Virus record (IMG/VR): IMGVR_UViG_3300025015_000024
Location: 56,838 to 76,837 of that record
Strand: one strand, 5' to 3'
Length of the DNA stretch: 20,000 bases
Source: an uncultured virus (IMG/VR IMGVR_UViG_3300025015_000024)
Taxonomy: Duplodnaviria; Heunggongvirae; Uroviricota; Caudoviricetes
Made by a program: the position numbers and the translations under genes. Below, one piece after another: positions 596-17,393 of this stretch. The notes beneath the pieces are model-generated. The model ran no database searches, was not told the origin of the DNA, and saw only the letters and a list, made by a program, of their open reading frames with translations. The number at the start of each line of letters is the position of its first letter. The first letter of the stretch is position 1.

Positions 596-603
596 CTAAC
601 AAC

Positions 604-611
604 TATTTATA
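604..611 (+). promoter_or_regulatory. Putative phage late promoter motif TATTTATA
   Basis: AACTATTTATATAAAAA. The same octamer recurs shortly upstream of most plus-strand genes. Confidence 0.65.
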
Positions 612-638
612 TAAAAAAATAATTAAACTTAATAAATT

Positions 639-1040
639 ATGCCACTATTTACAGATATTTGTGGGGCGGTAGATCAATTTGAAAGTACGATTGCTAATGA
701 AATTGCCACAATGACTACTCATGCCCAATTTTTAACAGCTGCTGACAATATGTCAAGTGGGAAAACTGATATGAATCTTCAATTATCAGGTACACTTGGT
801 ACTCATGTGACTAGATTATTAATTGACAGACTAACACTGGTTGAAGCAGATATGAGAAGGTTTTCTACAATGAAGGGTCTTGCTCAAAATATTAATCAAG
901 TTCATGAAGTTTTAAGAGAGCATGCCAAAATTACGGCAGCAATTATCAGGGGTGGAACAAGATGTGCAAATGGAAGTGGGACTTCTGCTGCTGATCAAAG
1001 ATTTTATAAAGATACCATATTTAAAGAATTTGGCAGGTAA
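639..1040 (+). CDS. Hypothetical protein, probably late/virion-associated
   Basis: 133-aa ORF with natural composition, preceded by the TATTTATA motif. No recognisable domain. Confidence 0.7.
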   Translation: MPLFTDICGAVDQFESTIANEIATMTTHAQFLTAADNMSSGKTDMNLQLSGTLGTHVTRLLIDRLTLVEADMRRFSTMKGLAQNINQVHEVLREHAKITAAIIRGGTRCANGSGTSAADQRFYKDTIFKEFGR

Positions 1041-1065
1041 TTAAATAATTTTTTTAATTAATCTA

Positions 1066-1104
1066 TTGACTTTTTAGAATATTTTATTTATCTTTGTATT
1101 TATA
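1066..1104 (+). promoter_or_regulatory. Bacteroidota-type sigma70 promoter (TTG-N20-TATCTTTG) directly followed by a TATTTATA motif
   Basis: TTG at 1066-1068, TATCTTTG at 1089-1096 (consensus TAnnTTTG), TATTTATA at 1097-1104. Confidence 0.7.
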
Positions 1105-1112
1105 ATAATATA

Positions 1113-1193
1113 ATGAAACAGATAACGACATATTTTGGTGGAAATGGTGATGGCACAACTGATGCGATAACCATAATGGCCAGATTATGTTAA
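1113..1193 (+). CDS. Putative attenuator leader peptide (26 aa, MKQITTYFGGNGDGTTDAITIMARLC)
   Basis: ATG at 1113 in A-rich context just after the promoter, TAA at 1191-1193. Phe/Gly/Asp/Ala-rich core, followed by a terminator and then tRNA genes. Confidence 0.65.
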   Translation: MKQITTYFGGNGDGTTDAITIMARLC

Positions 1194-1214
1194 AAATATA
1201 AATAACAACTATAT

Positions 1215-1249
1215 AAAAACCCTGGCTAATAAAAAGTCAGGGTTTTTTT
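1215..1249 (+). terminator. Intrinsic terminator/attenuator upstream of the tRNA cluster
   Basis: Stem AAAAACCCTGGCT (1215-1227) / AGTCAGGGTTTTT (1235-1247) with one G-U pair, and a T7 tract at 1243-1249. Confidence 0.85.
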
Positions 1250-1264
1250 GTTTATATGATAAAT

Positions 1265-1341
1265 GGTGATACAGCATATTGGTGCATGTTGCTTCCCTGT
1301 CACGGAAGAGATTGTCGGTTCAAATCCGTCTATCACCGCCA
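1265..1341 (+). tRNA. tRNA-Asp(GTC), atypical
   Basis: Acceptor GGTGATA/TATCACC, anticodon arm CTTCC-ctGTCac-GGAAG, T-loop TTCAAAT, G73 and encoded CCA. Has C at position 8 and a T-T mismatch in the T-stem. Confidence 0.85.
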
Positions 1342-1342
1342 A

Positions 1343-1415
1343 GGAACTTTGGTGTAGGTGGTCTGCACAACTGTTTGAAGCACAGTGGGTCTTTGTTCGA
1401 TTCAAAGAGGTTCCA
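1343..1415 (+). tRNA. tRNA-Phe(GAA)
   Basis: Acceptor GGAACTT/AGGTTCC, anticodon arm ACTGT-ttGAAgc-ACAGT, T-arm CTTTG-TTCGATT-CAAAG, A73. CCA not encoded (CAA follows). Confidence 0.85.
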
Positions 1416-1418
1416 CAA

Positions 1419-2702
1419 GGTTATTCATTTTTACATCAAACATTACATTTGAGTTCAAATGATTTTACAAATTCAACTTTGTATGGGTTAAACCCTAACC
1501 CTATATTCCTTATGTTACTTATGAATTTTTCACATTCAGGAATTACTTTTGATTTTAACATTATTCCAATTGCACCATTAACATCAGCATTTATTGTTTT
1601 GCCAATACTACTTAAAAATAAACCACGCTTTATTCTTTTGCCAAGATAAATTGCTTGTTTTTGTATCGGTTCAAATGCCAAATGGTCGCATTTACTGGTA
1701 TAACTTTCTTCCTGCTCAACAAGTTTTATGCTGTTGAGTTCTAACTTATATTTTATTTTATCTATAAGTTTGGCATGAGGGATAGAAACAAAATTCTGGT
1801 TATTACGGCTACCAATATTTATTTTCTTCTTCCAATGTTCATTTTTACCGATAACAACTGTCCCAATATTATACTTTAAACAGTATTTAAGAATGAAATC
1901 GCCTACCTGGTGCATTGCATTTTCTATCTTGTTATTCCTGTCAAAAGTTAATTTATTTATTCTGTTTGACGTCCCTTTATTACCAACATAACTCATTAAC
2001 TTGGCTCGCTTTTTATTAAAATACGCATTGATGGATTTTAATCCTCTACCGTTGATAATGAAAGGATTATTACCGACATTATCTATTGCTGTGATAAGAT
2101 TGTTTAATCCCAAATCAATGCTTAATACATTTTCTTCTTTTATTTTTTCATGTTTTACCTCCTTTTTTTCATAGACAACTTCTATTACAAAACAAGTTGC
2201 TTGTGGAATTATTCTCACTTGTGATATATTATCTACTTTTGTTTTTAATGGTTGAATATTTGCTTGTTTTGGAAAATGTATAAGTCCCCCTTTTAAATTA
2301 ACTTGCTGATTAGTGAAAATGCAAATAGAATATCCAGCCTTATCTTTGTATTTTGGTTGCTTAGGGTTTCCTTTAAATTTGCTTGGGCATTTTTTATATT
2401 CTTTTAATGCTTTGAAATATGACTTCCAGTTCTTAAAAAGTAATTTTATTATTTGCTGCGATGTTTGTGCCGGCAATGCCCTATAATCTTCCTGGTTAAA
2501 TTCAGCAAGCAATTTAGATAATTCATATTCCTCAAATTTCTGTATATTACCAAAAAATGCTTGCCGTTTGTGATAATTACAAAAATTATACAATCTGGCT
2601 GATTTAAAACAAATATCCTCTATTGCTTTATCGTTTATCCTAATATGTCGCTCTACGAGTTGCATTATTTATATAAAACTTAAAGTTTTACACTTATAAA
2701 TA
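1419..2702 (-). mobile_element. Non-autonomous IS200/IS605-superfamily (tnpB-only, IS1341-like) element; ends approximate
   Basis: tnpB without tnpA, sitting antisense between tRNA-Phe and tRNA-Gly. Hairpins at 1446-1461 and 1485-1501 (3' end) and 2666-2702 (5' end). Confidence 0.6.
1436..2665 (-). CDS. tnpB: TnpB RNA-guided endonuclease (IS200/IS605 family accessory protein)
   Basis: SARLYN HTH region, RuvC-I SIDLGLNN, VIGKN...QEESYTSKC, RuvC-III INADVNGAIGI; 409 aa. Confidence 0.92.
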   Translation of the reverse strand: MQLVERHIRINDKAIEDICFKSARLYNFCNYHKRQAFFGNIQKFEEYELSKLLAEFNQEDYRALPAQTSQQIIKLLFKNWKSYFKALKEYKKCPSKFKGNPKQPKYKDKAGYSICIFTNQQVNLKGGLIHFPKQANIQPLKTKVDNISQVRIIPQATCFVIEVVYEKKEVKHEKIKEENVLSIDLGLNNLITAIDNVGNNPFIINGRGLKSINAYFNKKRAKLMSYVGNKGTSNRINKLTFDRNNKIENAMHQVGDFILKYCLKYNIGTVVIGKNEHWKKKINIGSRNNQNFVSIPHAKLIDKIKYKLELNSIKLVEQEESYTSKCDHLAFEPIQKQAIYLGKRIKRGLFLSSIGKTINADVNGAIGIMLKSKVIPECEKFISNIRNIGLGFNPYKVEFVKSFELKCNV

Positions 2703-2765
2703 TCTTTCTAAAATAAAAAACTCAATAAAATGAATACATAAGAAATAAATAATATCAAAAATTAC

Positions 2766-2773
2766 TATTTATA
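2766..2773 (+). promoter_or_regulatory. Putative late promoter motif TATTTATA upstream of tRNA-Gly
   Basis: ACTATTTATATAAGA, 11 nt before the tRNA 5' end. Confidence 0.55.
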
Positions 2774-2784
2774 TAAGATAATGT

Positions 2785-2860
2785 GCATCAGTAGCTCAAT
2801 TGGTAGAGCGCCGGTCTTCCAAATCGGAGGTTGTGGGATCATAGCCCATCTGATGCTCCA
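2785..2860 (+). tRNA. tRNA-Gly(TCC) with non-canonical T-loop
   Basis: Acceptor GCATCAG/CTGATGC, D-arm GCTC-AATTGGTA-GAGC, anticodon arm CCGGT-ctTCCaa-ATCGG, U73 and encoded CCA. T-loop reads ATCATAG. Confidence 0.88.
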
Positions 2861-2875
2861 GATTAAATAAAATAT

Positions 2876-2948
2876 GGGGGTACATGTACCAAGGCTGGCG
2901 AAGAGCATTTGCAATGCTTTTGGGTGGATTGGATTTCCACTATCTCCA
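2876..2948 (+). tRNA. tRNA-Ala(TGC), atypical
   Basis: Acceptor GGGGGTA/TATCTCC with the G3-U70 alanine identity pair, anticodon arm GAGCA-ttTGCaa-TGCTT, T-stem GTGGA/TCCAC, A73. D-arm weak, T-loop TTGGATT. Confidence 0.75.
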
Positions 2949-2985
2949 CTAAATATATAAATGATTTCTTTTTCAATCATCAAAC

Positions 2986-2993
2986 TATTTATA
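2986..2993 (+). promoter_or_regulatory. Putative late promoter motif TATTTATA
   Basis: CAAACTATTTATATAAAAAT upstream of ATG 3009; near-identical context at 4443-4462. Confidence 0.65.
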
Positions 2994-3008
2994 TAAAAAT
3001 ATATTCTT

Positions 3009-4124
3009 ATGGCAGATATCACAACAAGTGAAAAAGACAAATTATTTACAAGAATAAAACATCAACTTGGTGCCCCATTAAGACAAATTGAAATTGATAA
3101 TTCTCAACTGGAAACATTTCTTGAAATATCAATTGAAGATTATTCATCTTATGTTAATAATTGGCTAATTGATCAGCAGTGGGATAGTTTAATAGGTTTA
3201 GATACAAATTCAACAGATTTATCCTTTGCATTTACTACACGTTCTTTAGATTTCACAAGGTCATTTAGTTTTGCATATTCAAAACAAGTTGGCCTTGGAA
3301 CAAATAGTCCCTGGGAACTTAAAAAAGATTTTGTTGTTATTACTGCCGGAACACAAGTTTATACAATACCAAAAAACAGGGAAGTTAATGAAGTTTTATG
3401 GGTAACTCCCCCATTAATAGATAGAGGTTTAATAGATCCATTTTCAAGGTCTAATTGGTCAGCAGAACAATTTGGATGGAGTTATATTGGTCGTGCTGCG
3501 GAATATGTTCAACCTGTGTTTAATATTTTATTATCCGCTCAGGATAGAGGTCTTAAAGATAGAATAAGAAGAAGTGAGTTAACTTATAGAATTGTTGGTG
3601 GACCAAATGGAACAAAATTATTATATTTATATCCTGTTCCAGGTGGAAAATATCAACCTGGAGGAGGAATGGGTGGAGGATTAGCTAATCCAGCATGGAA
3701 TGGTGCAAAAATTTGGTATTGGTATTATGATACTAATTCAACCAGTATAGATCAATGTAAAAATGAAAATAAAGATATTGTAAGATTACCAAGTGATGTT
3801 GATATTGATAATATTCAGTGGTCAGAATTAAATAAACCAGCCCAAACATGGGTTAGAAGATATTTATTGGCAACAACTAAACAAACTCTTGGAAAAGTGA
3901 GGGGTAAATTTGGTGGTGTTGTTGGTGTTGGTGAAGCAGAGAGAATAATGGATTATGCTGATTTATTATCTGAAGGTATTGCAGAACAAGAAAAACTTAT
4001 TGAAGAATTAAAAGAAAGATTAGAAGAATTAACTTATGTAAACATTTTAGAAAAGAAAGCAAGAGAATCAAAAGCATTAAATGATACAATGTCCAATATT
4101 CCTTTAGGGATATACGTAATATAA
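3009..4124 (+). CDS. Neck/head-completion protein (T4 gp13-like)
   Basis: N-terminal IKHQLGAPLRQIEIDNSQL and C-terminal WVRRYLLATTKQTLGKVRGKFGGV...EQEKLIEEL match gp13-type patterns; structural gene context. Confidence 0.8.
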   Translation: MADITTSEKDKLFTRIKHQLGAPLRQIEIDNSQLETFLEISIEDYSSYVNNWLIDQQWDSLIGLDTNSTDLSFAFTTRSLDFTRSFSFAYSKQVGLGTNSPWELKKDFVVITAGTQVYTIPKNREVNEVLWVTPPLIDRGLIDPFSRSNWSAEQFGWSYIGRAAEYVQPVFNILLSAQDRGLKDRIRRSELTYRIVGGPNGTKLLYLYPVPGGKYQPGGGMGGGLANPAWNGAKIWYWYYDTNSTSIDQCKNENKDIVRLPSDVDIDNIQWSELNKPAQTWVRRYLLATTKQTLGKVRGKFGGVVGVGEAERIMDYADLLSEGIAEQEKLIEELKERLEELTYVNILEKKARESKALNDTMSNIPLGIYVI

Positions 4125-4473: not shown

Positions 4474-5571
4474 ATGAATTTAAAAAAAGAATTGCATAAA
4501 TTATTATTAAAAGAAGAGGATTTTGGTGATTATGGTCATTGGATACCATCTGAAAACAAAACCCCAGATGAAACATATTCTGACAAGTTTATTCAACAAC
4601 TTGGTTCTGAGCGATTTAAAGATGTTGTTGAAAAAGTAAAAAAATATACACAAAGGGAAGATGTCGATGAAAGACAACTCATATCATTAGCAATTAGTGC
4701 TTTTAATAAAATAAAAGATATTGAGGAAGAACACATATCTCAACTGGAACAACTTGCGATTGATATTGTTAAATATGATTTCAATATTCCAGAAGGAAAA
4801 ATTGAATTTGATGCAAAAATTAGTGATAATCTTGATGTTGGTCGTAAAATTAAATATTTTGAAAAACCAGAAGAAATAAGTCCAGAAATACTATCAACTT
4901 TTAAAAATAAAGAATCTTTTGATTCAAGAGTTAATAAAAGAAGATTGGTTAATGCATTAACTGTTGGTATGTCTACAAAAGGACATTATATGTTTCATTT
5001 AGCAGATAAACAATTAAAAAAAATTCATCCAGATTTAATTAATTTATATGGAACAACTATGTCATTGGGTGAATTAGGATATTGGATAGTACCTGATGAA
5101 CTTCACATTAAGGTTGGAAAAGGAGAAATTGGTGGTGGTCAACAAGAAGGTGGGAAAATGAGAGTGGATTTATCTGGTGAAAAACCAAAAATAATTGCCC
5201 GCGCTAAACTATTTCCTGCTTTAGTTCACGAATTAATTAAGGGTGTTATGGAAATTATGTCAATAAACTCTCTTCCGAAGGATGATCAAAAATCAGAAAT
5301 AGTAAAAAGACATGCCGATTATATGAGCACAGAATCAAGAGATATAAGGTTTGGTCCAAAAATATGGGAAAAATTCATTGAATCAATACCAGATGATGAT
5401 TTGAATATAAAATCATATATTTATAGCTATATTATTAATTTACCTCATAAGGAATTTAATTCTTTAATGAAAGAAGTAATAGATGGAACAGATTTTTCAA
5501 AAAAAAGAATGAAAGAAATATCTGATATAATAAAAAGGAAATTAAACATCAGAGAACAAAAAAATATTTAA
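4474..5571 (+). CDS. Hypothetical phage protein (late-motif, possibly head-associated)
   Basis: 365-aa ORF preceded by the late motif. N-terminus ends in LLLKEE. Function not recognised. Confidence 0.75.
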   Translation: MNLKKELHKLLLKEEDFGDYGHWIPSENKTPDETYSDKFIQQLGSERFKDVVEKVKKYTQREDVDERQLISLAISAFNKIKDIEEEHISQLEQLAIDIVKYDFNIPEGKIEFDAKISDNLDVGRKIKYFEKPEEISPEILSTFKNKESFDSRVNKRRLVNALTVGMSTKGHYMFHLADKQLKKIHPDLINLYGTTMSLGELGYWIVPDELHIKVGKGEIGGGQQEGGKMRVDLSGEKPKIIARAKLFPALVHELIKGVMEIMSINSLPKDDQKSEIVKRHADYMSTESRDIRFGPKIWEKFIESIPDDDLNIKSYIYSYIINLPHKEFNSLMKEVIDGTDFSKKRMKEISDIIKRKLNIREQKNI

Positions 5572-5580
5572 AGTAAATAA

Positions 5581-6894
5581 ATGAAAAAAACAATTTTAAT
5601 AACAGAATCTCAATTTGAAAATCTTGTTAATACATTATTAAATGAAGATGACAGAGATAACAGGATTAATAAATTAAAAAAAATATTCCCCAAAATAAAG
5701 GACAAAGAATTTAATAAAATTATTGAGGCTGACCCAACTAAAATATTGGAGTTTCTTCCATGGCTATTAAGACAATATAATAATATATTAAAACATGAAA
5801 TAAAAAATATTAAGCCAGATGTATTTTTAGAAGATTTACCAAAGATAAAAGATTATCTTACAATTTATAAAAAAATAAGGTTTAATATTGAAATTGATCC
5901 ATTATATAGAAATATAAATTATTTGAAAACATACAATGAATTATATGACCTTATTAAACCCCATAAAGAAAGTAAACTTATGGGAATTGAACAACGAGAA
6001 TTGGATGAATTATTAAAAACAAATGCTGCAAAAAAAATATTTGAAAGTAATAAATGGATAATATTGTGGCCAAAAACTGAACTAGCATCTTGTATTATTG
6101 GGAGAAATTCAGAATGGTGCACAACATATGGACCTGGGGGCACACATCCAGAAAAAAGTGAAAATGCGTTTAAAAGTCATATTATCCATGGAAATTTTAA
6201 CTATATTTTAAATAAAAGTAATCCAAAAGAAAAATATGCTTTTTATTTTAATAATGAGCCAATGGATATTGAGGTATATGATATAGATGATAAAAAAGTA
6301 TATACTTTAGAAACCATTGATAGTTTTTTCAAAAATAAAAAGGAATTATTAAAACCATTAATTGAATCTGGAAAATTATTTCATCATTGGAAATTTTTAT
6401 TAAAAACTGGAGTTATAAGTTGGGTTAGTTTTGTTGATCCAAATATCTTAAATTTAAATTTGCATGGCCTAGGATTAACACGATTACCTGATGATATTGG
6501 ACGATTAACCAATATGACTATTTTTAGTGTTGGTAATAACAACTTAACATCTTTACCAGAATCAGTTGGAAATTTAAAAAATTTAACTGCTATTTCCGCC
6601 CCATATAATAATCTAAGAGCATTACCTGAAAGTATAGGTAATTTAAAAAAATTAACTGACGTTATGATAAATCATAATGAATTTACTGAAATTCCTCCGG
6701 TACTAAGTAAAGTAACAAAATTGCGAAGTTTGTATTTGTCTGAAAATAAAAACATAAAAAAAATATCAGAACAAATAAAAAGGTTTCCTAATTTTAAAAA
6801 TTTAAGATTTTTAACTTTAAAACAAATGAATGTATCTGATATTGAATTAAAAAAGATAAGGGAATTATTACCAAATACATCAGTAATTAATTAA
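5581..6894 (+). CDS. Multidomain protein with N-terminal leader, central SEWCT-containing domain and C-terminal leucine-rich repeats
   Basis: 23-aa LRR units: LPDDIGRLTNMTIFSVGNNNLTS / LPESVGNLKNLTAISAPYNNLRA / LPESIGNLKKLTDVMINHNEFTE / IPPVLSKVTKLRSLYLSEN. Confidence 0.85.
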   Translation: MKKTILITESQFENLVNTLLNEDDRDNRINKLKKIFPKIKDKEFNKIIEADPTKILEFLPWLLRQYNNILKHEIKNIKPDVFLEDLPKIKDYLTIYKKIRFNIEIDPLYRNINYLKTYNELYDLIKPHKESKLMGIEQRELDELLKTNAAKKIFESNKWIILWPKTELASCIIGRNSEWCTTYGPGGTHPEKSENAFKSHIIHGNFNYILNKSNPKEKYAFYFNNEPMDIEVYDIDDKKVYTLETIDSFFKNKKELLKPLIESGKLFHHWKFLLKTGVISWVSFVDPNILNLNLHGLGLTRLPDDIGRLTNMTIFSVGNNNLTSLPESVGNLKNLTAISAPYNNLRALPESIGNLKKLTDVMINHNEFTEIPPVLSKVTKLRSLYLSENKNIKKISEQIKRFPNFKNLRFLTLKQMNVSDIELKKIRELLPNTSVIN

Positions 6895-10135: not shown

Positions 10136-10675
10136 ATGACAATATTTAAATTAAATTTAACAAATTTGGGGTTGGATACTAGAAGAAGATTTTCTTCTGA
10201 TATTATAGATGATTATAGAAAAATTGAATCTAAAACCATTAAAAATTATAAAATATCAGGGAAATCATTACCAGAACTAAGACCAAAATTTATATCTGTA
10301 TCAAATGGTAGAGAATTTTATTATATAATTGAAGATATTAAAAATAAAGACATTGATTTGTTAAATCAAATTACTCAAACAGAAGAAAAACAGATAAAGG
10401 GAACGTTTGATATAACTAAGAGTAAACAATTATTTGATAATGAACAAATTGAAAGAACAGATAATTTAAAAAAAGATGATAGTATATTTAAAACAAGATT
10501 GGATAGTAAAATTGAAAATATAGACATAACACCAGAAATAAAAAAAATAAAGTTATTTTTTTCTGGAAGGGATTCATTAAATATTTCAATTCCAGATGAC
10601 CCGAATGAAATTGGTGCCAAATTTATTTTAAAAGATTCAAATTTTTTAAAAGAGGGAGATTTTGTTAAAGTTTAA
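10136..10675 (+). CDS. Hypothetical protein
   Basis: 179-aa ORF abutting the upstream stop. Confidence 0.65.
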   Translation: MTIFKLNLTNLGLDTRRRFSSDIIDDYRKIESKTIKNYKISGKSLPELRPKFISVSNGREFYYIIEDIKNKDIDLLNQITQTEEKQIKGTFDITKSKQLFDNEQIERTDNLKKDDSIFKTRLDSKIENIDITPEIKKIKLFFSGRDSLNISIPDDPNEIGAKFILKDSNFLKEGDFVKV

Positions 10676-10728: not shown

Positions 10729-11208
10729 ATGTCAATAGGCATAAAATTTCCATTTGAGGAAGATCCGAAAGGATTCTTTCTTGCAACTACAAAAACATCA
10801 GCAGAAGAAATTAAATCAAATCTCATACATTTACTTTTAACCAGAAAGGGAGAAAGATTATATAATGTTGACTTTGGTACAAGATTACTTGAATTTTTAT
10901 TTGAACCAAATGACAATGATACTTATGAAGATATAAAAAGTTCACTTCAGGAAGATATAAGTAAATGGATTCCTAATCTCACAATCAACAATATTGAAGT
11001 AAAAATGGACGATGTTTCAGATTTGGATGATACAAGTTTAGATCAAACAATTATAGATAAACAGGGTGGTTTAATTACAAAAACACATATAAAGGGAAAA
11101 TTAAACACATCATCAGGAGAAGAAGGAAATTCAATTAGTGTAAAAATAGATTTTTCTATAAATGAGGGAGTTTTTGAAAGTAAAGATACAGTTATTTTAA
11201 AATTTTAA
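10729..11208 (+). CDS. Baseplate wedge subunit (GPW/gp25 family)
   Basis: IKSNLIHLLLTRKGERLYNVDFGTRLLEFLFEP is the gp25 signature. Confidence 0.9.
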   Translation: MSIGIKFPFEEDPKGFFLATTKTSAEEIKSNLIHLLLTRKGERLYNVDFGTRLLEFLFEPNDNDTYEDIKSSLQEDISKWIPNLTINNIEVKMDDVSDLDDTSLDQTIIDKQGGLITKTHIKGKLNTSSGEEGNSISVKIDFSINEGVFESKDTVILKF

Positions 11209-12320
11209 TTGTTTAAAAACTCATATAATTTTTTATTATCAAAATTTATTAAATATTCATTAACTGATAATACTTTTTTATCAATCAGCGTAAAAAATAA
11301 TCCAGTGAATAATTCAATATTATTTTGTTTGCAGATATTAAAAACTCTTTGAGCATATAATTTTCTTTCCTCCTTTGTTATATTTATTGGTTTTTCTAAC
11401 AGATTATCCCATATATTATTTAATCTTTTAAGTAGTAAATCATATTTTTCTTTTAAATTTAATAATTCATCCTTTCTTTCAGGAATTGTTGAAACATATT
11501 CTTCAATTTCATTTGACTTTATGATTATTAATATATGATGTTGAGCAGTACTTGATTTGAGATAATGTACTGCCAGATATTTTGGATTTTTTATTTTAAT
11601 TCTATTAAAATATTTATCAACAATCACATATCCCTCTTCATAATACGGCATATTTTCAAATGTGTCTATTAAGGTTTGAATATTTTTATCTTTAAAATTA
11701 AAAGATTTAACTACTGGTAAACTATATAATTGTCCTGTTTTTAAAACATCTTCTCTTGATAATTCTTTTAGATTATGTAAATCACGTAACGTTAATAACG
11801 TAATTTTTGATTCTTTGTGAGGGGTAACAACAATATTATATGGGGTTGTTAATTCAAAAATATAAATATATTGTGGGTTAAAAGAATTTAATGTTAAATT
11901 ATATTTTTCTTTTAATATTTTATTAAATAAATTATTAAATGTTAATCCTGGTTTATTATTAACTTCTCCTTCACCTTCTCCAGTTCCAGATGTTCCCATA
12001 TACCATTTATTATTATAATTATAAACTTGAATATAAGAACCGTCTATTTTCTCAAGTATTTCAGCAGAATCCCAATCAATTTTACTGGCCCATTGTTCCC
12101 CGTGATTAAAGAATTTTTTAAATCCCAAAGATATTACATTATAAGTATTTTTTTCTAATATTAGTCCTCTGCATTCCCTTACTTCTTGTTTTGAAAAATC
12201 AGAATCAATTTGTTTATATTTTAAAAGAAACCTATTATCATATTCTTTATATATCAAATCAAAATCATTTATGGTTTTCTCTAAACCATGTTGTTTTAGA
12301 TATGTTTGGATTTTTAACAT
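11205..12320 (-). CDS. ATP-dependent RNA ligase (T4 Rnl1-like)
   Basis: ECRGLIL, KFFNHGE, motif I EKIDGS, YIFEL, motif IV EGYV, motif V RIKIKNPKY. Confidence 0.9.
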   Translation of the reverse strand: MLKIQTYLKQHGLEKTINDFDLIYKEYDNRFLLKYKQIDSDFSKQEVRECRGLILEKNTYNVISLGFKKFFNHGEQWASKIDWDSAEILEKIDGSYIQVYNYNNKWYMGTSGTGEGEGEVNNKPGLTFNNLFNKILKEKYNLTLNSFNPQYIYIFELTTPYNIVVTPHKESKITLLTLRDLHNLKELSREDVLKTGQLYSLPVVKSFNFKDKNIQTLIDTFENMPYYEEGYVIVDKYFNRIKIKNPKYLAVHYLKSSTAQHHILIIIKSNEIEEYVSTIPERKDELLNLKEKYDLLLKRLNNIWDNLLEKPINITKEERKLYAQRVFNICKQNNIELFTGLFFTLIDKKVLSVNEYLINFDNKKLYEFLNN

Positions 12321-16108: not shown

Positions 16109-16261
16109 ATGAAACAAAACGGAAGAGTTAATATAAGATTAAAAAAAGAATTATTTAATAAATATTTTCAATATTGCAAATTAAATAATATATCAATGTC
16201 AAAAGACATAAGAGAATTTATTAAAAAAAAAATAAAAAATTATGAGAAGAAAAACAACTGA
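16109..16261 (+). CDS. Ribbon-helix-helix (Arc/CopG-like) DNA-binding protein (50 aa; absent from ORF track)
   Basis: MKQNGRVNIRLKKELFNKYFQYCKLNNISMSKDIREFIKKKIKNYEKKNN: beta strand RVNIRL, a helix, then SMSxxIRxxI. Confidence 0.7.
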   Translation: MKQNGRVNIRLKKELFNKYFQYCKLNNISMSKDIREFIKKKIKNYEKKNN

Positions 16262-17393
16262 AGAATTTATAAAAGAAGCAAAAAAAATTCATGGAAATAG
16301 ATATGACTATTCTAAGGTAAAATATATAAATTATTATACTAAGGTTATCATTGGTTGTAAATTACATGGGTATTTTAGTCAAATTCCAGCAACACATATA
16401 AATAATGGCTCTGGTTGCATATTTTGTGGAAGGAAATCGTGCGGTGAAAAAAAGAATAGTAATACAGAAGAATTCATAAAAAAAGCAATTAAAATACATG
16501 GTAATAAATATGATTACTCTAAAGTAAATTATATAAATGCTAAAACTAAAGTAGAAATAATTTGTAAACAACATGGTATTTTTAATCAAATTCCAGATAA
16601 ACATTTAAGCGGGAATGGGTGTAAATTTTGTGGGTATAAATCTAATAGTATAAAACAAATATTGGGTAAAGAAAAATTTATAGAAATGGCTAATAAAATT
16701 CATAATAATAAATATGATTATTCATTATCAGAGTATGTAAATAATAATACAAAAATTAAGATTATTTGTCAAGCAAACCACATATTCGAGCAAACTCCAG
16801 ATATACATTTAAGAGGGAATGGGTGTAAATATTGTAGTGGGAATTATAATAGTAATACAGAAGAATTCATAAAAAAAGCAATTAAAATACATGGTAATAA
16901 ATATGATTACTCTAAAGTAAATTATATAAATGCTAAAACTAAAGTAGAGATAATTTGTTCTAAATGTGGAATTTTTGAACAGACACCAACCACCCATTTA
17001 AGTGGGTGTGGGTGTATATATTGCAGAGAATCTAGAGGAGAAAGAGAAATATTTAAAATATTAGATAAAATTATTATAAAATATGAAAGACAAAAAATAT
17101 TTATTTATTGTAGATATAAGTGGCCGTTAAAATTTGATTTTTATATTCCAGAAATTGGTTGTATTGAATTTGATGGTATTCAACATTATGAACCAATAGA
17201 ATATTGGGGCGGGATAAATAACTTTAAAGAAATAAAAAAACGAGATCAAATAAAAAAAAATTATTGTAAAGATAATAATATTCCCTTATATATTATTAAG
17301 TATGATGAAAATATTGAAGAAAAAATGAAGGAAATTTTAAAACAGTTAAAAAAAAATTATAATAAACGCATATTTGAAAAAGAGGTTATTTAA
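16242..17393 (+). CDS. Putative homing endonuclease: tandem DUF723-like zinc-finger repeats plus C-terminal Vsr/PD-(D/E)XK-like nuclease
   Basis: Four repeats of the type EEFIxxAxxIHGNKYDYSxVxY...IxCxxHGxF...HLxGxGCxxC, then SRGERE...LKFDFYIP...IEFDGIQHY...RDQIKKNYC. Confidence 0.8.
   Translation: MRRKTTEEFIKEAKKIHGNRYDYSKVKYINYYTKVIIGCKLHGYFSQIPATHINNGSGCIFCGRKSCGEKKNSNTEEFIKKAIKIHGNKYDYSKVNYINAKTKVEIICKQHGIFNQIPDKHLSGNGCKFCGYKSNSIKQILGKEKFIEMANKIHNNKYDYSLSEYVNNNTKIKIICQANHIFEQTPDIHLRGNGCKYCSGNYNSNTEEFIKKAIKIHGNKYDYSKVNYINAKTKVEIICSKCGIFEQTPTTHLSGCGCIYCRESRGEREIFKILDKIIIKYERQKIFIYCRYKWPLKFDFYIPEIGCIEFDGIQHYEPIEYWGGINNFKEIKKRDQIKKNYCKDNNIPLYIIKYDENIEEKMKEILKQLKKNYNKRIFEKEVI
16455..16958 (+). 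repeat. Intragenic 111-bp direct repeat (16455-16565 and 16848-16958)
   Basis: Copies appear identical except for one synonymous GAA/GAG change. Confidence 0.85.

Follow-up and report, generated by a model that had tools for sequence, protein, structure and literature searches.

A putative leader-peptide attenuator ahead of a tRNA array in an uncultured tailed phage

Introduction

The purpose of phage transfer RNA (tRNA) genes has been debated for fifty years, and their control has hardly been addressed. A locus in an uncultured Caudoviricetes virus (IMG/VR record IMGVR_UViG_3300025015_000024) raises the question of control directly, as the order along the DNA is promoter, short leader open reading frame (ORF), terminator, tRNA-Asp, tRNA-Phe, tnpB (on the opposite strand) and tRNA-Gly. 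What are a short ORF and a terminator doing immediately ahead of tRNA genes? The stretch analysed here (the window) is the final 20 kb of the 76.8-kb record (positions 56,838 to 76,837); the record has an estimated completeness of 28% and is a fragment of a jumbo phage genome. We conclude that the unit is quite likely a ribosome-mediated leader-peptide (trp-type) transcription attenuator that gates the tRNA array, a reading supported by sequence comparison and covariation, and that the phage probably makes the tRNAs of the array only when ribosomes run short of them.

Organization of the leader unit

The features of the unit and its array, in window coordinates, are as follows.

1066-1096, plus strand: promoter of a repeated phage family, with a TTG box, then TAnnTTTG ending at 1096
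1113-1193, plus strand: leader ORF, 26 codons, ATG start, TAA stop
1134-1166, plus strand: control codons 8-18, one Phe, four Gly, two Asp and one Ala, plus one Asn and two Thr
1127-1151, plus strand: region 1, the 5' half of a hairpin within the ORF (from folding)
1165-1191, plus strand: region 2, the 3' half of the same hairpin, whose core (1177-1183) has an alternative partner at 1222-1228
1215-1227, plus strand: region 3, the 5' arm of the terminator (from the terminator scan and folds)
1235-1249, plus strand: region 4, the 3' arm of the terminator, with the T run at 1243-1249
1265-1341, plus strand: tRNA-Asp (GTC), called by ARAGORN and by Rfam (46.6 bits)
1343-1416, plus strand: tRNA-Phe (GAA), called by ARAGORN and by Rfam (52.6 bits)
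1436-2665, minus strand: tnpB (IS605-family OrfB / Cas12f-like), 409 residues; PF01385, E 8.6e-16, and PF07282, E 2.5e-8
2785-2860, plus strand: tRNA-Gly (TCC), called by ARAGORN and by Rfam (61.7 bits)
2878-2949, plus strand: tRNA-like element with an Ala (TGC) anticodon loop, called by ARAGORN at a lowered threshold only

A first-pass annotation of this DNA had proposed a 26-codon ORF at 1113-1193, a reading of its codons 8-18 as Phe, Gly, Gly, Asn, Gly, Asp, Gly, Thr, Thr, Asp and Ala, and an intrinsic terminator at 1215-1249, and each is present as described. The terminator-like hairpin (1215-1247) has 13 pairs and a predicted stability of -16.8 kcal/mol, and is followed by seven T residues at 1243-1249. 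There are six terminator-like sites in the window compared with 4.5 +/- 2.2 in shuffled sequences, and the count by itself is little informative. The spacer between the terminator and tRNA-Asp is 15 nucleotides (nt), and there is therefore no room in this genome for a bypass promoter that would feed tRNA-Asp from downstream of the terminator, a possibility that the annotation had named as fatal to its proposal. We note that the 1215-1249 segment has an A run before the stem as well as the T run after it, and could also stop transcripts arriving from the tnpB strand.

The promoter that had been proposed upstream of the ORF is supported at 1066-1096 by repetition of its motif and not by a sigma-70 scan, which returned 178 sites compared with 169 +/- 12 and is uninformative in AT-rich DNA. 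There are 31 occurrences of TTG-N16-20-TAnnTTTG in the genome compared with 13.4 +/- 3.4 in block shuffles, and about 19 of the copies (counted by eye) share a longer common consensus, including the promoters of all three leaders found in this genome (see below). We take the motif to be the Bacteroidota-type housekeeping -33/-7 consensus, and transcription probably starts a few bases 3' of 1096. The approximately 19 near-identical 31-nt copies precede genes on both strands (e.g. 23179-23209, 47769-47799 and 70915-70945).

The leader vocabulary is locally unusual. Among the 425 ATG-initiated ORFs of 20–40 codons on both strands of the genome, the window leader is the sole case with at least eight Asp, Phe, Gly or Ala residues in an 11-codon stretch, and it is again the sole case with at least seven Asp, Phe or Gly residues in such a stretch.

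Two sister units in the same genome

The terminator region is similar to a stretch 34 kb upstream, in which two further units of the same build can be read.

G000:C1:23000-28000, about 455-905 and 1874-2674 of that stretch (outside the window): two sister units

All three units have the same promoter type, a short ATG ORF, a hairpin within the ORF, and a strong terminator 8–24 nt before the first tRNA. The first sister unit heads genes for tRNA-Pro, tRNA-Leu and tRNA-Gln, and six of eight residues in one stretch of its leader are Leu, Pro or Gln. The second heads tRNA-Asn, Ser, Trp, (Ser), Ile, Arg and His; the Asn identity of the first tRNA is read from its anticodon loop as aligned by Rfam, and the second Ser tRNA is supported only by ARAGORN at a low threshold. 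A run of 16 residues in the leader of this unit contains 15 that belong to the six amino acids of the array, which just one of the 425 short ORFs achieves. The local enrichment of the three leaders is matched by 1, 10 and 1 of the 425 short ORFs respectively, with the leader itself counted. The sets are not grouped identically in all phages: Pro and Gln are grouped with Leu in both leader and array in this genome, but with Thr, Tyr, Lys and Gly in the relatives described below.

Leader codons and tRNA content in related phages

Relatives were sought through the 371-residue protein encoded downstream of the array, using the best 80 of 165 viral-contig loci. At approximately 39–48% identity, none of these best 80 loci has a tRNA beside that gene, with the exception of near-identical contigs. 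The whole records behind five and then a further 22 loci were searched for tRNAs, and the tRNA regions were examined with a pipeline that uses structure only and no amino-acid information. A unit qualifies where a T run is preceded by a hairpin at least as stable as -9 kcal/mol, the end of an ATG ORF of 15–45 codons lies no more than 75 nt upstream, and a tRNA follows within 600 nt. There are 26 rows with a terminator followed by a tRNA, of which 16 units in seven records qualify (one leader being taken from an additional sequence stretch), and in all 16 the leader ORF has 22–36 codons. Ten rows were dropped: five in which the first tRNA is more than 600 nt away, two units of the relative G005 lacking an ATG ORF, one with a hairpin of -7.5 kcal/mol, one ORF-less hairpin within a tRNA region, and one ORF-less row with the tRNA 916 nt away.

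Leaders in these units match their own arrays. The excess of leader-array matches over genome composition is 112.2 compared with 0.2 +/- 17.2 (maximum 73.8) when arrays are permuted, and none of 20000 permutations reaches the observed value. In all five genomes with at least two units the true assignment of leaders to arrays ranks first (of 6, 6, 24, 2 and 2 possible orders). The match is specific to the reading frame: frame 0 has 230 matched codons out of 458, and the other frames have 83 and 100, each out of 442. Further, 182 of 232 matched codons are strict-wobble cognates of the array anticodons.

A profile built from four leaders of the Phe/Glu/Asp/Ala class matched 27 viral contigs, and all 27 have an ATG ORF of 27–31 codons, a terminator and an array led by tRNA-Phe, with the terminator T run starting 46–56 nt past the stop codon; ORFs of this kind are thus conserved, on which the first-pass proposal depended. 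In this class there is no Gly in leader codons 7–19 and no tRNA-Gly in any of the 27, and tRNA-Glu is present in 26. The window unit shows the opposite pattern: four Gly codons and no Glu codon in the leader, and a tRNA-Gly but no tRNA-Glu in the array. Leader and array content therefore co-vary both within genomes (as in the permutations) and between them (as for Gly and Glu), as the annotation had predicted for related phages.

Outside its genome the window leader was found only in two near-identical contigs, and the same two are the only matches to a profile of Asn/Trp/Ser/Ile/His/Arg-class leaders and to the 133-residue protein encoded upstream. A degenerate DNA pattern for seven leader residues returned 118 stretches, of which 80 were examined; eight lie in open frames of up to 60 codons and none has a tRNA within 600 nt, and we regard these as noise. 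With 600-3100 as query, blastn matched nothing beyond pieces of tnpB and tRNAs and gave no close relative in culture, and tblastn with the 371-residue protein gave no match. The baseplate protein has a match in Flavobacterium phage immuto (26% identity), a phage with three tRNA matches (four by ARAGORN) and no leader-terminator unit.

There are several departures from the common build among the relatives. Two units in G005 without an ATG (L124o about 760-872; L121o about 10320-10441) have kept the terminator and the leader's 3' portion, and the same promoter is joined directly onto these; such leaders may have decayed or may start differently. The distance from terminator to tRNA is 176–279 nt in some relatives, and the one such spacer inspected holds promoter-like motifs. 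Lys-rich ORFs of thirteen codons (with five and four Lys) together with a hairpin lacking a T run precede Lys tRNAs in G005 (L124o 3800-3842) and G009 (L134o 16594-16636), and may represent a second, different kind of leader. A conserved ORF of about 55–65 residues separates the attenuator from the Asn/Trp/Ser/Ile/His/Arg-type array in G003, G004, G005 and G012 and is absent from the corresponding unit of the window genome; in G002 it is placed after a TnpB-like fragment instead.

L121o 10450-10640; L127o about 1420-1610; L129o about 1693-1880; L135o 2810-2985; L132o about 1640-1855: conserved ORF of about 55–65 residues

Other ORFs interrupt the tRNA arrays of G004, G005 and G009, several of them homing-endonuclease-like by eye. 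In the Phe/Glu/Asp/Ala arrays ARAGORN also calls stop-reading anticodons (tta in G005, L123o 5242-5314; tca in three contigs, L153, L156 and L159), a possible sign that stop codons are suppressed or recoded in these phages.

Alternative pairings and covariation

The minimum free energy fold of 1100-1260 consists of a hairpin at 1127-1191 and the terminator, at -45.2 kcal/mol compared with -22.9 +/- 3.3 for shuffled sequences (z-score -6.8; none of 200 shuffles as good). The hairpin within the ORF (-22.5 kcal/mol) corresponds to the pairing of regions 1 and 2 that had been recognized by eye, and it holds region 2 when no ribosome is present. A second proposed pairing, of 1177-1183 with 1222-1228, is found in folds of nascent RNA. 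With the transcript extended to 1234 and 1100-1165 masked, representing a ribosome held on codons 13–14, these segments pair at -8.6 kcal/mol; with the ribosome at the stop codon they do not pair and the terminator arm is free. Scanning the ribosome mask along the nascent RNA of each of the 16 units gives the same pattern throughout, in that the 5' arm of the terminator is sequestered with probability 0.5–0.9 when the A site is inside the matched codon cluster and 0–0.3 within a few codons past it.

Region 2 is also matched to its own terminator. The duplex of region 2 with the terminator arm of the same unit averages -6.57 kcal/mol over the 16 units compared with -4.32 +/- 0.51 when arms are swapped (none of 5000 swaps as strong). 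In the window genome the three units score -9.7, -12.2 and -10.1 kcal/mol with their own arms and rank first or second among the 16 arms despite differing terminator sequences, the window unit (-10.1 kcal/mol) ranking first. The hairpin of regions 1 and 2 is present in all three of these units and is weak or absent in most relatives.

The Phe/Glu/Asp/Ala class has enough members for covariation. We aligned 22 of the 29 available class leaders, leaving out seven with the same peptide as a kept row, which gave 21 distinct rows. In these 21 relatives the antiterminator helix is 85.6% paired and six of its seven pairs change on both sides, inside coding sequence. Its covariation score is 0.524, compared with 0.224 +/- 0.033 in shuffles (0 of 500) and 0.02–0.10 when the helix is slid, and is close to that of the terminator helix in the same class (0.627).

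These observations bear on two alternative explanations. In the first, the leader peptide itself would be active, as a nascent arrest peptide or in trans, such that its conserved C-terminal part matters as sequence and not through RNA pairing. The C-terminal halves of leaders are indeed conserved within classes. However, the antiterminator helix lies in this C-terminal part and changes there are compensated in the terminator arm, and the N-terminal clusters vary with array content; we find an active peptide hard to credit. In the second, no ribosome would take part and the leader RNA itself would bind tRNAs, in the manner of a T-box carrying several specifier codons; the leader is indeed structured, precedes a terminator and contains codons complementary to the array anticodons. 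Against this, neither the T-box model nor any of the Rfam leader families (Trp, His, Leu, Thr and the like) has a match at E<=1 over the 20-kb window, the codons are inside an ATG-to-stop frame conserved in 27 of 27 relatives of one class with a frame-specific match, and the mask position that frees the terminator arm follows the end of the codon cluster. Direct binding is thus a very unlikely explanation.

A model for control of the array

A ribosome-mediated attenuator would work as follows. Host RNA polymerase would start at the phage promoter (1066-1096), and a ribosome would translate the 26-codon leader. A freely moving ribosome would reach the stop codon and cover region 2, the terminator at 1215-1249 would form, and transcription would end 15 nt before tRNA-Asp. 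When charged tRNA for the Phe, Gly, Asp or Ala codons is scarce, a ribosome would be held on codons 4–17, covering region 1 and leaving region 2 free, and region 2 (1177-1183) would pair with 1222-1228 before the 3' arm is made, such that polymerase would enter the tRNA genes. The new tRNAs would end the stall, closing a negative feedback loop. Without translation, the 1127-1191 hairpin would hold region 2 and the terminator would form. The model presumes translation of the leader, coupling of transcription to translation in the host, read-through in response to stalling, and some agent that depletes the tRNAs.

The first-pass proposal of a trp-type attenuator with codons matching the downstream tRNAs is supported by ORF conservation, co-variation of codons and arrays, frame specificity, the covarying helix and the lack of room for a bypass. 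Nonetheless, a number of observations weigh against it, and these concern the leader, the array, the relatives and the folding.

Taken as a whole ORF, the window leader is only marginally enriched, with 7 of 25 codons matched at an expected fraction of 0.162 (binomial p 0.097), and the enrichment claimed at first pass therefore holds for the local stretch (1 of 425 short ORFs) and is marginal for the whole. This would be expected if the ORF were just another small gene, or the transcript a small RNA that carries its own terminator, with the tRNAs expressed by leaky read-through and the codon match due to chance, and the two-way construction of the terminator hairpin fits such an arrangement too. 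However, none of the 20000 permutations reproduces the match and no other short ORF reaches the local enrichment, the antiterminator helix covaries inside the coding sequence, and strong terminators stand 8–24 nt before the first tRNA in all three arrays of the genome. We give this explanation next to no weight.

Over the whole window ORF only five codons are strict-wobble cognates of array anticodons; four more matched codons (three Gly and one Ala) require four-way reading by U34. For five Thr codons, one Tyr codon and one Asn codon within or close to the control stretch, neither the array nor the 76.8-kb fragment supplies a partner tRNA. The many leader codons lacking a partner in the array would suit an attenuator that senses general translation capacity or infection timing and not particular tRNAs, with any slowing of the ribosome opening it, as would the behaviour of relatives without the hairpin of regions 1 and 2, in which the terminator arm is sequestered with probability 0.5–0.9 even when untranslated. 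But a general sensor needs no array-specific vocabulary, and the leaders match their own arrays over others in the same genome in five of five genomes, with content co-varying across phages (e.g. Gly and Glu). We consider a general sensor improbable, though the least so of the alternatives.

The array is split by tnpB, such that a 1.37-kb antisense gene lies between the attenuator-proximal tRNAs and Gly/Ala. A motif search of the genome found no promoter of the repeated phage family before tRNA-Gly, and expression of Gly and Ala from the attenuator thus depends on presumed transcription through that gene. Moreover, of the four tRNAs claimed at first pass, Asp, Phe and Gly are found by both ARAGORN and Rfam, but the Ala element at 2878-2949 is not. 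It has no default ARAGORN call and emerges only when the threshold is lowered, to a setting that yields 51 calls across the 76.8-kb genome, many of them false, as against eight by default. Nor does it match the Rfam tRNA model even at E<=10 (106-nt search). The fold is roughly a cloverleaf with a poor D arm (z-score -2.3). It is doubtful as a working tRNA-Ala, and is perhaps a decayed tRNA.

Among the relatives, the units across phages are homologous and the match counts are not independent events. Changes were made by hand before the count, with two Rfam-supported tRNAs added and the tRNAs behind two weak hairpins merged into the preceding unit. The two G005 units without an ATG start are further exceptions, as is one G009 unit that has promoter-like motifs between the terminator and the tRNAs and a possible bypass. 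One G002 leader retains Gln, Lys, Thr and Gly codons, and only Tyr and Pro tRNAs are called downstream of it. The duplex of region 2 with the terminator arm is weak (-4.5 kcal/mol or weaker) in 8 of the 16 units.

Finally, the terminator (-16.8 kcal/mol) beats the antiterminator (-8.6 kcal/mol) at equilibrium, also when 1130-1165 is constrained to be single-stranded, a fold that the annotation had proposed as a check; switching is seen in the nascent-transcript model only. The switch would therefore need a kinetic order of folding, and trp attenuation also relies on one. On balance, we retain the trp-type attenuator as the likely reading.

What would deplete the tRNAs is a further matter. We put forward tentatively that the tRNA arrays are independently gated modules whose leaders probe the host tRNA pool codon by codon, an inducible counter-measure that would switch on exactly those tRNAs lost to anticodon nucleases and other tRNA-cleaving immunity of the host, or to the shut-off imposed by the phage itself. 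The hypothesis for the trigger is the destruction of host tRNAs by defence nucleases. Eight kb from the unit, window 11205-12320 (minus strand) matches phrog_562 ('RNA ligase and tail fiber protein attachment catalyst', E 6e-41), of the T4 RNA ligase 1 family. T4 RNA ligase 1 repairs nuclease-cut tRNA, and a gene of this type nearby would be in keeping with a phage that devotes resources to maintaining tRNAs.

The tnpB insertion and other window genes

The tnpB gene lies between tRNA-Phe and tRNA-Gly with the same spacing in two near-identical contigs. Its stop codon and the 3' end of tRNA-Phe, on opposite strands, are 20 nt apart, and a guide RNA region would overlap or abut the tRNA gene in antisense. 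In G002 a TnpB-like C-terminus also adjoins a tRNA array (L132o about 1250-1590; translation only), and tRNA arrays may be favoured landing sites for TnpB elements. Two other genes in the window have informative matches.

16242-17393, plus strand: HNH or homing-endonuclease family match (phrog_559, E 2e-87)
5581-6894, plus strand: phage protein with leucine-rich repeats (PF23598, E 2.7e-15)

Relation to known systems

Enterobacterial leader attenuators can be multivalent, as in ilvGMEDA (Ile/Leu/Val) and thr (Thr/Ile), and others include trp, his, leu and pheA. The phage unit resembles these in its promoter-proximal short ORF with control codons, its exclusive 1:2/2:3/3:4 pairings, its intrinsic terminator and the use of several amino acids per leader. 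It differs in controlling tRNAs and not biosynthetic enzymes, such that the product would directly relieve the stall, in leaders that list three to about 11 amino acids, and in being a phage element with a Bacteroidota-type promoter and no Shine-Dalgarno sequence. In E. coli pheST, the pheM leader-peptide attenuator controls a synthetase and is likewise placed over a decoding component for the same amino acid, but for one amino acid and not for tRNA genes. T-boxes similarly sense a specific tRNA state with a terminator/antiterminator switch ahead of translation-related genes. There the RNA binds the tRNA directly without a ribosome, through one specifier codon and with conserved T-box motifs, unlike the phage unit, which has no T-box match.

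A Phe-rich leader before the tRNA-Phe genes of E. coli would be a precedent, but K-12 MG1655 has a spacer of only about 105 nt ahead of pheV and pheU; the sequence upstream of pheV in that strain has neither a Phe-rich ORF nor a terminator.

The attenuation scheme of pheA has been set out (PMC3082878). The window unit has the structural elements of a trp/his/ilv-type leader attenuator: a short ORF, control codons, a terminator without a later promoter, the 2:3 pairing and the 1:2 hairpin. The unit appears to work like known leader attenuators, and yet by sequence it is a member of no Rfam family. The nearest control of a spare tRNA array that we found is in Anabaena, where a trn operon of 26 genes is repressed by TrcR and induced by translational stress (PMC10272220). 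Like the phage arrays it is off until translation is in trouble, whereas its control, as described there, is by a protein repressor at the promoter, is not codon-resolved and is not of phage origin. Phage tRNAs have been described as a counter-defence against tRNA-cleaving immunity, with nuclease-resistant anticodon loops and a strong constitutive promoter (PMC10264068, PMC11555353); there too phage-borne tRNAs replace host tRNAs lost in infection, and neither of the two papers contains 'attenuat' or 'leader'. A third paper, PMC10802454, is on the same subject. A search of the full-text literature, with subscription journals and old scans outside its reach, found no published account of leader-peptide attenuation of tRNA genes. 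What is new is that the controlled genes are tRNAs, that they are in a phage, and that the leaders list three to about eleven amino acids.

Implications

With a leader that lists the array and a terminator that can be switched, the phage would measure the decoding of specific codons and supply tRNAs on demand. This reading would account for the sorting of arrays into fixed amino-acid sets, and the limiting tRNAs of a given phage would be readable from the leader vocabulary alone. If the leaders do probe the host pool, their amino-acid lists would identify the host tRNAs that are threatened in the phage-host pair concerned. Leaders of this type may be of use in engineering as natural multi-input sensors of ribosome stalling. 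More broadly, the unit would extend classical attenuation from amino-acid synthesis to tRNAs, and to Bacteroidota-type hosts, where little is known of it.

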